Source of the DNA: Amoebophrya sp. A120
Taxonomy: Eukaryota; Protista; Dinoflagellata
DNA length: 64,000 nt
Reading direction: 5' to 3'
Assembly (NCBI GenBank): GCA_905178155.1
Contig: CAJINV010000009.1
Coordinates: forward strand, 3,466,768 to 3,530,767
Shown here one piece after another: positions 1,497-64,000 of this stretch. The stretch's first letter is position 1. Every line of letters starts with the position of its first letter. Made by a program: the position numbers and the translations under genes. The notes beneath the pieces are model-generated. The model ran no database searches and was not told the origin of the DNA. It worked only from the letters and a program-made list of their open reading frames with translations.

Positions 1497-4400
1497 ATGT
1501 CGTCCATGATCCAGCCCCCCGTGATGGCGGCGAGCCTGCTGGAGCACGCGCAGCGCGAGATTGTATCAAATGCAAAAATGTCTGGCTCTGAGAGATTGCG
1601 AGACTTGTCATGCTTGTGTGGCATGACCAAAAAGTTTGTAATGCGTGGCCAAGAAGAGACCCTTTTGCTTGTCATGCAGCAACGCAGTTTGTCATGCGAA
1701 AAACGCAACACAAAGAAGCGCAGATATTTCTCGTCATGCTTGGCTGTGCATTACAGAGCATTCACTATTCCCAACGCAGCATTACAAGTTTCCAGACCCA
1801 GACACTTTTGCATTTGATAGATTGAGCTTTTCGCCGATGAAGCTGTGGCGAAGATCAACGACGACATGGTCCAGAAGGAGGGCATATGGATTGCAAAAGT
1901 ATCGTACTCGTATAAATGCATTACAAATTTCCTCACCATGAGAAATAAAATTTGTAATGCAGATTTGCCTTGGGAACAAGATTTGTAATGCAAGACTTGC
2001 ATTTGTACGAGTGCGATACTTTTGCACAGGATAGGGCAAGAAAACGGTGGACACGCTCAACAAGGCGATTCCAGCGTAAGAATTTTTGTTTTTTCTTTTC
2101 TAACCACAACTAGGATACTATGGCATTGTCGTGCATGACGAATGCTTTGCTTTATGCCATGCATGCATGACAAAGCGTAAGCGAATTCATAATCATATTT
2201 CGTAATTCAAAATCTCCAGCTGGCTCGCCATGCTGCTGAAGGAACAGTACGACATTCTGACGACCCGCATGACGCAGGCCTTCTCGCACATGCTACAAGG
2301 GTTGCAGGCGGATCTGCTCGAGTCGGCCAAAGCGGACGACAAACGCATGCGGGATTACGTGCAGAACTTTTTCCAGAAACTTTCCATCGCGGCCGACGTA
2401 CGGCGGCTGAAGACCCAGATGGAACAGGCGCAGTTGGACATCTATGAGAATCTCAGATCGGTTACCTTCTCAACTGTTGCATGAATTTGTCATGCAAAAC
2501 TACCATGATACATCATGAACATGATCATCCACACGATCAAGCTGCTTCGCATGACAAATTTGCAAAGGGCTAAACAGCACCTAAATGATCTGTGCGGAAT
2601 TTGTAATGCTACAGGGGCAGCAACCTCCCCCCTTTGACTTTTGCTATTTTTGCATTACAAATTCGCGTAACTGTTGAGAATCTAAACTGATTTGGGAACG
2701 CCATAACATCCGGAGACTCCAGCAGGACTACGAATCCAATATCAAGAACGGACTGCAGCCCGATGTGGAGAAGGCGGAAATCCAGATTGCGGACTTGATT
2801 TCCATATTCTGAGTAAAAACGTCCCCACCACAGAGTCAAGATGGGGATTTTGCAACACAAACCTTGAAGTTTTGGGAACCACGCATGACAAATTGCAGGC
2901 TGTAGTGTAGTGCAGTTTAGCAAGGGAAGCCGCATCACAAATTCATCTCCTTATCCTGTTTATAGCATTACAAGTTCCAAAACACGATTGGAAATTCTTC
3001 TCGTGGGGATGCGCATGACAAGCGCTCTGGTGCTTGCAGATCTGCATTACAACTCTGGGGTGGGTACGTTTTTACATAGGATATTCCAACGTGAATCGCA
3101 TCGAAAACGACAAGATGGTGGAGGAGGTGCACATATGCATTGCAAAAGTCTGCTCGTACAACTAGTATAAATCGCATGACAAATTGGCTCAGCATTACAA
3201 ATGTAATTTGTAATGCGGATTTCCCTTTATTACTAGATTTGTAATGCATGACTGCGATTACAACTACGAGTGCGATGCTTTTGCATTGGATAGCACAAAT
3301 TGGAGGACAAAATCCTTCTAGAGGGGGAGAAGGTGTTAGACATTGTCGAAACAAAAACGGTCGCTCTGAAAGCGTGGCAACGAGACAAAATGAAGGAGTT
3401 CCAGGACCAAACCACCGACAAAGTGGACAAGTTCGAGGAGAAAGTCGACGTGAAATTGAAAACGTACGAAACTTCGAACAAAAACCAGTGGCTCTGGAAC
3501 GTGCACCAGCACTGCTACGCGGAAGCAGACGCGGAGAAAGACGACCCGGCGAACCTGATCCTGGACTACAGTACCGCCTCGATCAATTCCGCCGGTCCGC
3601 ACCCGCCGCGCTTGGTCCCGAAAACGGTGTTGGCAAAGAAGCAGCAGTATGAGCTCCCAACCGAAACAGTGGCGTTGAAGGAGCACAACGTGTTAACTGA
3701 CACGGGAATCACCCCCACCGAGTTGAACAAACAGCAAGTCCTCTATTCGCAAGATTTCTTCTTCTGCATGGTGCCCAATTGCTACTTGAAACTGATCATC
3801 GGGGAGGAAGTTTGTCACGCGACCGTGGAGGAAAAAAGACAGGCGAGCGCTACGACCTCCACTTCGCAGCCGCGCCGGGTCGTGGGGTGTTACCTGGTCT
3901 TGCAGTTTCCGATATGCATTGCAAATATGTCTGGGTCTGGAAACTTGTGATGCAAGTCCGTGAACAATAAATGCTCTGTAATGCGCCGCCAACCATGACA
4001 AGTTTTTTCGTGCTTGTGTGCTGCGTATTTCGCATGAGAAACTGCGCTTTTGCATCACAGGCAAGCGGGCCTCTTGGTGGCCACGCAATACAGAGTGCAG
4101 AGTCATGCCAGACTAGCATGACAAATCTCGCGATATTCCAGACCCAGACATACTTGCATTTGATATCCGAAGGAGGTGGATTACGAAAGGTCCACGATCC
4201 GTGTCGAGATGAACATGAACGGGCTGCTATCTTGAGTAAAAGCGTCCCTACACCAGAGTCAAGATGCGAAATCCACTATACAAATCCACCAGCTTTGGTT
4301 GTTTCGCATGACAAGTTTGTCATCATAGTGTAATCCTGTTTAGCTAGTTCAGAAGCATCACAGATCCAGCATATCCTGCTGATTCTAGCATCACAACTTC

Positions 4401-62200: not shown

Positions 62201-64000
62201 CATTTTTACATTTTATAAGGTGCTCAGATGAACCACCAGCAACTGATCGAGCAGTACGAGCAGGTAGACGCGCAGGTGATTGACTTGCTATTTTTCACGC
62301 CCAACAACATCATTTCTTCCTCCCAGTTCTCGAGCAGTGGCGGGGGGAACAGCAATGCTGGGAGCAGCAGCTCCGAGGAAGACAGTGTGGCTCATCACCA
62401 CGGGACGACCACAGCCACGAGGTGCCTGTTTCATCATCACCAGGGCAGTACGAGTAGCGGGCCGCTTCGGTATCAAATGCAAAAGTGTCTGGGTCTGGAA
62501 GGCTGCAAGTTTGTCATGCACATTTTGAATGACTCTTGACGTCTGTGATGCATGCTCTAGCATCACAGATTTTGTGAGGGCTTCCTGATGCCTATACCGC
62601 ATGATAAATGCCCTCTCGTCGTGGCAAAAACTGGACCTCTTTTGCTGTTCATGCAATACAGATTTTTCTAGTGTCCAAATGCAGCATCACAAGTTACATC
62701 CTTCCAGACATCCAGGGATATTTGCAATCCATATTCGGGGAACCATGACGATTGAAGAAGTGAAATCCAATACGGGGATCGCGAGCTCCTTCGGAACCAG
62801 CACTGGGGTATCAAATGTAAAAATGTCTGGGTCTGGAAGAGTCCGAACTTGTGATGCTACCTTTGGACTCTACATAAAATCTGTATTGCACGAACAGCAA
62901 AAGAGGTATAATTTGTGCTACGCGGAGAGGGCATTTCTCATGCGGTATGAGCATCAGATTCAGAAAGCCCTCGCAAAATCTCTGATGCTAGGGCATGCAT
63001 CACAGACCTCCTGGGGCATGCAAAATATGCATGACAAACTCCTGCACTCTTCCAGACCCAGACACTTTTGCAATCCATAACGGGGTGGGATGAATAACAA
63101 TGGAGTTGGAACAAGTGCCTCCTCCACGCACGACAGCTCGGCAACCACTTCTGGGAACGAAGATCTTCACGAGAACAAAGAAGTGGACCACGATCAGCAT
63201 GAGCCGTCGCCAACGAGCAACACAAAAATTGCGGTCTACATGGGAGGCAATAGTACTACACAGAATATTACTACTGGCACCACCACTGTAACTACAGGAG
63301 CCACTGCGTCCTCCTCCCGAGGAGGGGTCGGCTCCTGTGCTGTCAACCCGAGTAGTACCAGCAAGCATTTGTTTCAAACCACGCACCAACAGCGTATCCG
63401 GCACCAATCCGCCATTGCCCTGATGCGGGCGGTTTCTGCGCTGCGCAAAGTGGACGAAATTCTGCAGAAGTCGACCATGTTTTGGTCTCATTTAGGCCTG
63501 ACCACGGGACAAGTGTCTCAAATGAAAGACACGCTCACGCTGTGGATCAAGTACGCCAGCAGCATATGAAATGCAAATATGGCTGGGTCTGGAAACTTGT
63601 GATGCTGGTTGGCGAATCAAGAGAACGCCAGAAATGACGGCTCAGCATGACAGGTTTTTGAGTCGCTTGGTGTTGCCTATTCTGCATGAGAAACTGGGTT
63701 TTCGCATGACACAAAAGTCGTGGCGCTTTTGGCTACCTGGCATGACAGAATTGACAGTCATGCTAGCAGAGCATGACAAACCCGGCATTTTTCCAGACCC
63801 AGACATATTTGCAATGCATACAGCAACGAAAAGCTCCGGAAACGACTGCACGAGCGGCTGGAACAGTATCGCATGTTCTGGCTCGATATCCTGTGCAAAG
63901 GTATCGTACTCGTATAGATGCAAGTCTTGCATTACAAATCTTGTTCCCAAGGCAAATCCGCATTACAAATTTTAGTTCTCATGCGGAGGAAATTTGTAAT
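53275..64000 (+). CDS. Ser/Thr protein kinase (CAMK-group-like) with long C-terminal extension; 1 GT-AG intron (53827-54096) plus at least 18 introners; 3'-partial
   Basis: [69 protein letters not shown] and [20 protein letters not shown] appear only after element removal. Confidence 0.93.
54426..54575. mobile_element. Introner family B
   Basis: DR gagca. Confidence 0.9.
54624..54876. mobile_element. Introner family A
   Basis: DR acaac/acaat. Confidence 0.9.
55036..55314. mobile_element. Introner family D
   Basis: DR gtctt; splits kinase DLWSLG motif. Confidence 0.93.
55349..55616. mobile_element. Introner family A
   Basis: DR tgatg; splits MLM/GHYPF. Confidence 0.93.
55662..55987. mobile_element. 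Introner family G
   Basis: DR gttgc. Confidence 0.9.
56034..56183. mobile_element. Introner family B
   Basis: DR tgcaa. Confidence 0.9.
56250..56513. mobile_element. Introner family A
   Basis: DR actaa; splits kinase subdomain XI. Confidence 0.92.
57422..57737. mobile_element. Introner family A with internal ~23-bp tandem duplication
   Basis: DR gcagt; atgtcggtgcggttgttttagca occurs twice. Confidence 0.88.
58436..59645. repeat. GC-rich minisatellite, ~92-bp unit, about 13 copies, each with a strong hairpin
   Basis: CCTAGGCCATGACGCGGGGACCGAGTCCCCGCGCTGGCCTAGG recurs at 58552, 58644, 58736, 58832, 58924, 59016, 59108, 59200, 59292, 59384, 59476; degenerate edge copies. Confidence 0.95.
59702..59967. 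repeat. 11-bp GGGGTRTGTYY tandem repeats followed by three inverted copies
   Basis: ggggtgtgtct/ggggtatgttc array at 59702-59860; gacacacccccgaacatacccccgaacatacccc at 59934-59967. Confidence 0.85.
60195..60476. mobile_element. Introner family A
   Basis: DR aggcg. Confidence 0.9.
61030..61284. mobile_element. Introner family A
   Basis: DR aagga/gagga. Confidence 0.88.
61350..61608. mobile_element. Introner family A
   Basis: DR cgaca. Confidence 0.9.
61674..61892. mobile_element. Introner family H
   Basis: DR gaaca. Confidence 0.88.
61952..62217. mobile_element. Introner family A, close relative of the 25260 copy
   Basis: DR aggtg; internal sequence very similar to 25260-25527. Confidence 0.9.
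62471..62733. mobile_element. Introner family A
   Basis: DR ttcgg. Confidence 0.9.
62809..63079. mobile_element. Introner family A
   Basis: DR tgggg/acggg; frame restored. Confidence 0.87.
63565..63820. mobile_element. Introner family A
   Basis: DR cagca. Confidence 0.9.
63887..64000. mobile_element. Introner family B, truncated by the window end
   Basis: Left end tatcctgtgcaaaggtatcgtactc. Confidence 0.8.

Follow-up and report, generated by a model that had tools for sequence, protein, structure and literature searches.

The closest described relatives of the elements treated here are the introner elements of the dinoflagellate Amoebophrya sp. A120, the same strain that supplied the 64-kb window under study (the whole stretch analysed, 64,000 nucleotides of contig CAJINV010000009.1, positions 3,466,768 to 3,530,767 of the forward strand). 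The subject is a nine-letter motif, TTGTVATGC, shared by the interiors of the short inverted-repeat elements in this window. Inverted repeats in A120 are described as TAT, then seven less conserved letters and then at least three A; the border repeats are 3-5 nt, the non-canonical introns average about 240 nt and form thousands of families, and the genes of this strain are arranged in blocks of one orientation (Farhat et al. 2021, BMC Biol, PMC7789003). The elements of the window agree with the text of that paper in their border direct repeats (5 nt here), length of about 240 nt, many families, removal without GT-AG, ends able to form hairpins, the presence of similar repeats in some canonical introns, and co-oriented genes. 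They are read differently in one respect, since those authors dispute transposase-driven spread in A120, whereas the reading favoured below assumes a transposase. A shared internal 9-mer is absent from the main-text descriptions and supplement text of the paper, figures excepted. Literature text searches for the literal 9-mers and for 'introner' with 'subterminal' gave only unrelated work among the matches listed. The element system is already published, and the shared internal word is a new detail as judged on searchable text, figures aside.

GT-AG introners of Micromonas and Aureococcus are likewise described as miniature DNA transposons; they carry terminal repeats, duplicate their target and make an intron where they insert (PMC7789003, PMC12130899). 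Those introners use canonical splice sites, whereas at least 19 elements of the window are removed from RNA at element-border sites, whatever the letters of the target-site duplication (TSD). Euglenid nonconventional introns have a CAG...CTG signature with CCAGG at +3 to +7 and CCTG at -9 to -6 (Gao et al. 2024, PMC11170887; Nomura et al. 2025, PMC12501133), and those of hemistasiid diplonemids are short and rich in G/C at their ends (Thakur et al. 2025, PMC12621601). Both kinds share with the present elements the lack of GT-AG, end-to-end pairing, borders made ambiguous by direct repeats and a suspected miniature-transposon origin. They differ in that the ends here are TAT...ATA, and no TTGTVATGC motif is described in the available text of these papers (PMC11170887, PMC12501133, PMC12621601). 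Assignment to the euglenid or diplonemid type is ruled out by the terminal sequences; the consensus of the element ends reads TAT[C/G]NNNTG[C/T]AAA and does not match the CAG...CTG signature.

Subterminal repeats bind transposases in transposons with terminal inverted repeats (TIRs) and in their miniature derivatives, for example Ac/Ds, En/Spm, the P element and IR-DR. The motif resembles them in being short, in occurring in several copies and both orientations about 30-250 bp from the ends, and in being kept in non-autonomous derivatives. It is also related to the terminal sequence, a terminal variant (TATGCATTGCAAA) being one mismatch from the motif, and it is conserved while the interior drifts. 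Unlike subterminal repeats, its direction with respect to the end varies by family, the elements double as non-canonical introns, and transposase binding is predicted here.

TTGTVATGC has 143 exact matches on the two strands of the window (71 on +, 72 on -) versus 2.06 +/- 1.29 in 100 dinucleotide-preserving shuffles, with a maximum of 6. An initial annotation, made from the letters alone, had noted a 9-mer recurring in both orientations, and this observation is correct. It had counted about eight variants in 1564-1819, where 5 exact and 4 one-mismatch copies are found. Allowing one mismatch, there are 321 matches in the window versus 30-41 in five block shuffles. In an unbiased k-mer count the commonest 8-mer of the window is the motif core, TGTCATGC/GCATGACA, with 100 copies where base composition predicts 1.95; it outnumbers the words from the terminal repeats of the most abundant repeat family, which peak at 41 copies. 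Position 5 is C in 79 cases, A in 36, G in 28 and T in 1; therefore, the V is a genuine property of the motif. Single-letter variant counts show that positions 2, 4 and 6-9 are almost invariant. The other frequent variants are CTGTCATGC (17 copies, C at position 1) and TTCTCATGC (16 copies, C at position 3), and the flanks lengthen the word to about aRAYTTGTVATGC (9-13 nt). The permitted variants are identical across all element families.

The elements that host the motif are relics of DNA transposons. Fifty-one elements occupy 12,516 bp (19.6% of the window) and contain 127 of the 143 exact copies. They are 149-337 nt long, start with TAT, end with ATA, and have TIRs and a 5-bp TSD of arbitrary sequence. 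A rule-based finder (TAT/ATA ends, at least 14 of 20 TIR matches, at most one TSD mismatch) returned 44 elements in the window and none in base-shuffled sequence; shuffles are the informative control, as sequence reversal preserves inverted repeats and was not counted. Seven further elements with decayed duplications or repeats were added by eye. Fifty are complete, and a family B element at 63887 is cut off by the window end. A search ignoring the terminal letters gave 42 TIR and TSD pairs (0, 1 and 0 in three shuffles), of which 36 begin with TAT and 6 are internal artefacts of the same elements. Therefore, a single terminus type covers all elements with TIR and TSD in the window. The TSD is perfect in 39 of the 50 complete elements and has one mismatch in 7. 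The pattern TAT-N7-AAA is present at 87 of 101 element ends; the other 14 belong to family F, to clusters s2, s6 and s7, and to two mutated family A ends.

BLAST groups the 51 elements into 12 clusters, namely families A (25), B (8), C (5), F (3) and E (3) and seven single elements. With the motif and the 30-nt ends masked, the 12 cluster representatives have no mutual match at E 0.01 or better. An exact motif copy is present in 11 of the 12 clusters, at least three copies per element with no more than one mismatch are present in all 12, and the three largest families have 2.4-4.0 exact copies per element. The families had been described earlier as lacking any other similarity, which is right for the interiors and wrong for the ends, where TAT...ATA, the 5-bp TSD and mostly TAT-N7-AAA are common to them. 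The same description had recognised the recurring motif and had missed both the TIR/TSD transposon nature of the elements and the published status of most of them as non-canonical introns. All families are likely of common descent, since they have the same terminus type and duplication length.

The motif is distributed over the sequence classes as listed below, with a chance level of about 0.03 exact copies per kb. The six introns with RNA-defined GT..AG joints were taken irrespective of the motif.

51 elements, 12,516 bp: 127 exact copies (10.15/kb), 248 with at most one mismatch
Six RNA-defined GT-AG introns, 785 bp: 2 exact copies (2.55/kb), 7 with at most one mismatch
RNA-covered exon pieces, 16,689 bp: 1 exact copy (0.06/kb), 22 with at most one mismatch
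Unclassified rest, 33,060 bp: 7 exact copies (0.21/kb), 33 with at most one mismatch

The single exact copy in RNA-covered exon agrees with the earlier statement that the motif is rare in exons. Outside the 51 elements there are 16 exact copies. A 1,957-bp element has 3 of them close to its ends, and element fragments have 3; the others are in GT-AG introns (8), in RNA-covered exon (1) and elsewhere (1).

The motif is selectively conserved. Mismatches were counted in 17 disjoint nearest-neighbour pairs within families, with the motif columns set from the consensus of the other copies. The motif columns are mismatched in 121 of 975 cases (12.4%), the terminal 30 nt in 123 of 985 (12.5%) and the other interior columns in 412 of 1,917 (21.5%; Fisher p = 1.3e-9 for motif versus other interior). 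The conserved interior islands of the family A consensus fall on motif-like words. The initial annotation had left room for plain homologues without excess conservation at the motif, and the excess is present. A multi-copy motif near both ends that is conserved above the interior is also the pattern of subterminal repeats.

Public metagenome contigs were scanned as a second data set for two same-direction copies 31-33 nt apart, which gave at least 125 loci. Among the loci listed, 58 are on contigs with the prefix JACKZZ01 (up to 92 kb), and 51 of these match window families at 74-96% identity. Judging from this similarity, the assembly is probably from the same or a very close organism and not from an independent lineage. 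Twenty-nine elements without the search pattern, among the 58 JACKZZ01 loci listed, contain 53 exact copies in 6,906 bp (7.67/kb), with at least one copy in 26 of the 29. When the window and the JACKZZ01 loci listed are pooled, 14 of 17 clusters hold the motif. Of the other 67 loci listed, the 12 inspected (mostly the most motif-rich) are unrelated short tandem repeats without TAT/TSD elements, and the rest mostly show just the matched motif pair.

The favoured reading is that the motif is a repeated subterminal DNA-binding site, predicted from its sequence and layout, of a putative transposase that would mobilise the TAT...ATA elements. Its probability is put at about one half. On either side, 39 of the 51 element ends have their first copy at a distance of 32-48 nt. 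Same-direction neighbours are 31-33 nt apart in 8 of the 12 clusters, and also outside elements. Three turns of B-DNA measure about 31.5 bp, and same-direction copies about 32 bp apart would place the bound proteins on one face of the helix. A site on double-stranded DNA fits the data more closely than does a zipper of hairpins or a signal on single-stranded RNA. The binding site for a common trans-acting factor that had been suggested earlier gains support as a prediction from the same 9-mer in 11 of the 12 clusters, its low mismatch rate and this spacing. The reader of the motif would be a protein acting on double-stranded DNA, and this protein would most likely be the transposase. RNA stems formed by opposed copies would then be a by-product of inverted binding sites, and the copies in GT-AG introns would be leftovers of decayed elements. 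A word common to all families, conserved like the termini and repeated about 32 bp apart could serve as bait for the protein that moves or removes the elements, and as a search key for autonomous copies in the full genome.

Integrase-type enzymes typically produce 4-6-bp duplications, and by analogy integrase-like enzymes would fit the 5-bp duplication found here. A120 introners with terminal inverted repeats and integrase-like open reading frames (ORFs) have been described (Gozashti et al. 2025, PMC12130899).

Several results weigh against a transposase site. The direction of the end-proximal copy varies, being TTGT..ATGC inward in family A, the complement in B and all one way in C; this is unusual for transposase sites within one superfamily and counts against a simple model. 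There is no transposase among the 38 ORFs of the window, where Pfam scans gave FKBP, C2H2 zinc-finger and protein kinase domains, and putative transposases are reported in strain A25 and not in A120 in the text of Farhat et al. 2021 (PMC7789003). The six GT-AG introns lack terminal repeats and are also enriched in the motif, their 785 bp containing 7 copies with at most one mismatch where about 0.4 would be expected. In minimum-energy folds at least 7 of 9 letters are paired in 83 of 125 motif windows (66%) versus 2,580 of 6,984 other interior windows (37%). Complementary centres are found in 8 of 9 local family B hairpins, and the folds contain 10 motif pairings from centre to centre, 9 of them Watson-Crick and 1 G.U, so that the modelled structures leave room for a structural contribution of the motif. 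The conservation test is equally compatible with selection during propagation or in place, and of the counts, those of clusters are independent and those of copies inside one family are not.

The elements are removed from RNA. Contigs of runs X3, X4, X5 and X8, which come from one study with two samples and are not independent replicates, were aligned to 40 kb of the window. These runs are taken as RNA because of the six GT..AG joints and of a depth that varies from gene to gene and falls to zero at places with about 31 in the DNA run. On 1401-21400 the raw-read RNA runs X9 and X10 give one read each and are uninformative. One 6,935-nt contig spans five exon pieces in the first 20 kb, and its gaps of 1,335, 787, 538 and 529 nt equal exactly the summed length of 5, 3, 2 and 2 elements plus 5 nt each. 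Seven of the joints listed each leave out one element and 5 nt; their position can slide by 3-6 letters, and the ends read, for example, GG..TA, TT..AA or AA..AT. In total, at least 19 elements (families A, B, C, E and F and three single clusters) are missing from RNA with one TSD copy each. Their loss is independent of the duplicated letters (for example AAAAA or ATGGC) and takes place without GT-AG ends. The elements are present in the DNA run, whose contigs extend 24 nt into flanking elements. The elements missing from RNA are non-canonical introns and match the published Amoebophrya A120 introner elements. The 51 elements and the 1,957-bp element are listed below, with strand. throughout; 'exact' refers to exact motif copies.

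1564..1819, family A element: 256 nt; TSD GATTG/GATTG; 5 exact, 9 with at most one mismatch
1885..2033, family B element: 149 nt; TSD GGGCA/GGGCA; 3 exact
2443..2705, family F element (by eye): 263 nt; TSD ACATC/ACATC; 4 exact
2805..3083, family C element: 279 nt; TSD TTCCA; 5 exact, one direction only
3134..3292, family B element: 159 nt; TSD GCACA; 4 exact; a transcript contig piece begins at 3293
3913..4165, family A element: 253 nt; TSD TCCGA; 2 exact; missing from transcript contig
4228..4507, family C element (by eye): 280 nt; TSD GCTGC/ACTCC, decayed; 4 exact; missing from transcript contig
4591..4849, family A element (by eye): 259 nt; TSD TCTCG/GCACG, decayed; 3 exact; missing from transcript contig
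4919..5127, single-copy cluster s1: 209 nt; TSD GATTT; 2 exact; missing from transcript contig
5208..5516, single-copy cluster s2: 309 nt; TSD GAGAT/GAAAT; 3 exact; missing from transcript contig; informs the cut site
5957..6285, family E element: 329 nt; TSD AAGAG; 0 exact, 5 with at most one mismatch; missing from transcript contig
6431..6698, family A element: 268 nt; TSD GATCA; 1 exact; missing from transcript contig
6741..6915, family F element: 175 nt; TSD GAACG; 2 exact; missing from transcript contig
7316..7581, family A element: 266 nt; TSD GTCCT; 2 exact; missing from transcript contig
7836..8097, family A element: 262 nt; TSD AAAAA, which makes GT-AG impossible; 3 exact; missing from transcript contig
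8816..9071, family A element: 256 nt; TSD ATGGC; 1 exact; missing from transcript contig
9116..9378, family A element: 263 nt; TSD CGAAG; 1 exact; missing from transcript contig
12768..13028, family A element: 261 nt; TSD TCCAA; 3 exact; a transcript piece stops at 12762
21108..21375, family A element: 268 nt; TSD AAAGA; 2 exact
21495..21651, family B element: 157 nt; TSD AGGTA; 2 exact
25260..25527, family A element: 268 nt; TSD CGTCG; 2 exact
25629..25965, single-copy cluster s3: 337 nt; TSD AAATG/AAACG; 2 exact
34642..34803, single-copy cluster s4: 162 nt; TSD GGAAA; 3 exact; RNA joint 34636>34804 skips 167
35068..35217, family B element: 150 nt; TSD GGAGT/GGAAT; 3 exact; RNA joint 35066>35222 skips 155
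36828..37151, family E element: 324 nt; TSD AAAGG; 2 exact
37405..37638, family F element: 234 nt; TSD TCGCG; 4 exact
38463..38617, family B element: 155 nt; TSD CAAGC; 3 exact; RNA joint 38457>38618 skips 160
38659..38921, family A element: 263 nt; TSD CCCGC/CCCGG; 1 exact; RNA joint 38653>38922 skips 268
39570..39829, family A element: 260 nt; TSD ACGAA; 4 exact; RNA joint 39563>39829 skips 265
43326..43604, family C element, motif on - strand: 279 nt; TSD AACGA; 4 exact; RNA joint 43319>43604 skips 284
43643..43921, family C element, motif on + strand: 279 nt; TSD GCGGA; six same-direction copies; RNA joint 43637>43922 skips 284
46495..46688, single-copy cluster s5 (by eye): 194 nt; TSD decayed; 0 exact, 3 with at most one mismatch
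47204..47477, family A element: 274 nt; TSD GTCAG; 3 exact
48113..48338, single-copy cluster s6: 226 nt; TSD CACGA/GACGA; 1 exact
54426..54575, family B element: 150 nt; TSD GAGCA; 3 exact
54624..54876, family A element: 253 nt; TSD ACAAC/ACAAT; 3 exact
55036..55314, family C element: 279 nt; TSD GTCTT; 3 exact
55349..55616, family A element: 268 nt; TSD TGATG; 2 exact
55662..55987, family E element: 326 nt; TSD GTTGC; 1 exact
56034..56183, family B element: 150 nt; TSD TGCAA; 2 exact
56250..56513, family A element: 264 nt; TSD ACTAA; 2 exact
57422..57737, family A element: 316 nt; TSD GCAGT; 3 exact
58122..60078, 1,957-bp element with family B ends and GC-rich cargo: TSD ACCTC/ACCTC; TIR 16/20; 3 exact
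60195..60476, family A element: 282 nt; TSD AGGCG; 2 exact
61030..61284, family A element: 255 nt; TSD AAGGA/GAGGA; 3 exact
61350..61608, family A element: 259 nt; TSD CGACA; 3 exact
61674..61892, single-copy cluster s7: 219 nt; TSD GAACA; 2 exact
61952..62217, family A element: 266 nt; TSD AGGTG; 2 exact
62471..62733, family A element (by eye): 263 nt; TSD TTCGG/TTCGG; 2 exact
62809..63079, family A element (by eye): 271 nt; TSD TGGGG/ACGGG; 2 exact
63565..63820, family A element: 256 nt; TSD CAGCA; 2 exact
63887..64000, family B element, cut by the window end: 2 exact

Five elements of four clusters fall within 1.6 kb of one gene (3908-5519), with 277 nt of exon between and around them, and all five are absent from the 6,935-nt contig.

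Three elements with one-letter TSD differences pin the position of the cut in RNA (35063-35222, 38654-38926 and 5203-5521). The transcript retains the left-copy letter at TSD position 4 for the 35068 element and at position 3 for the 5208 element, and the right-copy letter at position 5 for the 38659 element. One cut between TSD positions 4 and 5 on both sides fits all three and would give an intron of 1 nt + TAT...ATA + 4 nt. A figure legend of Farhat et al. 2021 (PMC7789003) calls the border positions unknown.

Copies of the motif also occur in introns of the canonical type. Five of the six RNA-defined GT-AG introns have at least one copy with no more than one mismatch, and both exact copies are in one intron. 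The eight canonical introns named earlier as motif carriers, probably picked for the motif, all have GT..AG ends; 6 of 8 have an exact copy and all 8 have a copy with at most one mismatch, and three are supported by RNA (39925-40073, 41536-41641 and 53827-54096). The introns are as follows.

34866..34984, + strand, GT-AG intron: RNA joint 34865>34985; exact copies at 34912 and 34944 (32 nt apart)
39925..40073, + strand, GT-AG intron: RNA joint; one copy with one mismatch
41536..41641, + strand, GT-AG intron: RNA joint; two copies with one mismatch
53827..54096, + strand, GT-AG intron within a protein kinase domain: loose contig end 53826 continues after 54096; 1 exact
2076..2219, + strand, GT-AG intron named earlier: GT..AG ends; 1 exact, 3 with at most one mismatch
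28660..28786, + strand, GT-AG intron named earlier: GT..AG ends; 1 exact, 2 with at most one mismatch
36363..36514, + strand, GT-AG intron named earlier: GT..AG ends; 1 exact
37245..37379, + strand, GT-AG intron named earlier: GT..AG ends; 1 exact, 2 with at most one mismatch
48618..48742, + strand, GT-AG intron named earlier: GT..AG ends; 1 exact

Upstream of the intron at 53827..54096 the sequence matches positions 1-120 of the Pkinase profile, and downstream of it positions 114-174. BLAST of 12 GT-AG introns against the elements gave short matches of 31-56 nt at 69-85% identity, mostly at the motif copies, which are insufficient to prove descent. The copies in GT-AG introns are probably remnants of decayed elements. 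The first 22 or so nucleotides of the intron at 41536-41641 (41536-41557) resemble by eye the right terminus of an element (ACACTTTTTGC..GGATA), with weak BLAST support; this likeness hints that some canonical introns contain element remnants.

The alternative that survives best is a reader of RNA, although it is unlikely. The motif would then be part of a splicing code, read by a factor of the machinery that excises the non-canonical introns or by a protein that marks introns in general. It is present in both kinds of intron and at chance level in exons, it reaches five of the six RNA-defined GT-AG introns, and its conservation equals that of the terminal repeats, to which the published model gives a role in splicing. 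According to the text of Farhat et al. 2021 (PMC7789003), U1 small nuclear RNA was not found in these strains, which makes an unusual mode of intron recognition plausible. However, the motif has no strand preference, neither overall (71 on +, 72 on -) nor in the 12 GT-AG introns, where copies with at most one mismatch number 11 on + and 8 on -. The + strand is the one on which the six canonical joints all show GT..AG, and it also carries the three genes with Pfam domains. Family C shows one strand version of the motif per orientation, and yet the opposite-orientation elements 43326-43604 and 43643-43921 are both removed from one transcript. The element at 5957-6285 has no exact copy and is still absent from its transcript. 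The balanced strands, the removal of family C both ways and this last element make a reader of one RNA strand unlikely, and with it the intron-definition signal proposed earlier. The recognition code for the system, also proposed earlier, stands as a conjecture, against which the element at 5957-6285 speaks. A reader of hairpins would need paired arms, and the pairing is often broken at the variable positions. (U)GCAUG enhancers are strand-specific intronic RNA elements. An RBFOX-like element of this kind was considered for the motif and is ruled out by the same lack of strand preference and by the removal of both family C orientations.

A more specific proposal is that the 9-mer is the code of an intron-marking or intron-removing factor that recognises transposon-born introns, GT-AG introns included, in an organism for which U1 small nuclear RNA is reported as lacking, the transposon site having been taken over as a splicing signal. 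This proposal is doubtful. If the motif were a splicing signal, a transposon site would have been co-opted for intron recognition, and a comparison with strain A25 could separate a transposon function from a host splicing function.

It is also improbable that the motif is functionless, either as a slowly decaying relic of an ancestral short tandem unit or as a mutational cold spot. The shared terminus type and duplication length make a common ancestor of all families likely, and in family C the spacings (31, 48, 33, 49 and 31) look like a threefold unit of about 81 nt that holds two copies. However, the 9-mer is kept while the interiors have lost all other similarity, and its columns diverge about half as fast as their neighbours even between the closest relatives. 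The permitted variants are equal in all families.

If the motif were the site of some host protein that acts on DNA, such as one involved in chromatin, silencing or base modification, and not of a transposase, the result would be the same orientation-free and sequence-specific pattern as for the transposase site. This would agree with the presence of the motif in GT-AG introns that lack terminal repeats, and no transposase is reported for A120 in the available text of Farhat et al. 2021 (PMC7789003). This explanation is nevertheless quite improbable; nothing in the analysis points to such a factor, and the motif is tied to one terminus type in this window. Selection for spread would favour the motif in every family that succeeds, which is not an obvious consequence of a host mark.

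The constraint on the motif is on its sequence and not on pairing, as variation is not compensated in the opposite arm. In minimum-energy folds 40 of 125 copies pair with another exact copy, and opposed copies 15-17 nt apart form local hairpins. This pairing arises because the same word occurs in both directions, and it is not protected. In an alignment of 27 family B copies RNAalifold keeps the terminal stem alone, with a covariation term of +0.46. The named motif stems of these copies have 90.9% of cells paired versus 90.7 +/- 0.3 in shuffles and a covariation score of 0.054 versus 0.053, so that the compensatory changes expected of the self-complementary modules suggested earlier are not seen. 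The variable motif positions are unpaired in 8, 10, 11 and 16 of the 27 copies. In family A the end-proximal copies have complementary centres in 10 of 33 elements versus 14.2 +/- 2.4 in shuffles, and the usual state is C at the centre of one end with G or A at that of the other. G.U oppositions are not in excess of A.C (48 versus 38 at the ends, 261 versus 249 inside), in a test of low power. Family C has six copies in a single direction, at 32, 63, 111, 144, 193 and 224.

It is very unlikely that the copies serve solely as self-complementary modules by which the intron, as RNA or single-stranded DNA, is compacted into a hairpin with its ends together: the raised pairing of motif windows, the copy-to-copy stems, the local hairpins and the complementary centres of family B favour them, but they cannot account for one sequence in 12 unrelated clusters or for the exclusion of T at position 5, and they conflict with the absent covariation, the shuffle-level pairing, the family A centres, the one-way copies of family C and the lack of a G.U excess.

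At the family B ends (for example 35068-35217) letters 4-7 differ, reading TATCCTG on the left and TATGAAC or TATGCAT on the right, and are unable to pair in RNA. Therefore, these termini look constrained as sequence and not as a stem.

The recognisable genes of the window encode an FKBP-type isomerase, a C2H2 zinc finger and a protein kinase, at 13843-15189, 17252-18790 and 53251-54522. The remaining 34 of the 38 long ORFs have no Pfam match, which is in line with the large share of unassigned proteins reported for Amoebophrya (Farhat et al. 2021, PMC7789003).

In the DNA run X1 on 1401-21400 the summed contig depth is about 2,400-119,000 over element-bearing bins versus about 31-38 over the single-copy bins at 9405-20743. 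This contrast fits thousands of element copies in the genome, the summed depth not being a copy number.

The 1,957-bp element at 58122-60078 has family B ends, a perfect TSD and three exact motif copies near its ends. No ORF longer than 145 aa lies wholly within it. Its cargo is GC-rich (about 66% G+C) and includes 11 copies of a 92-nt tandem repeat at 58443-59666.

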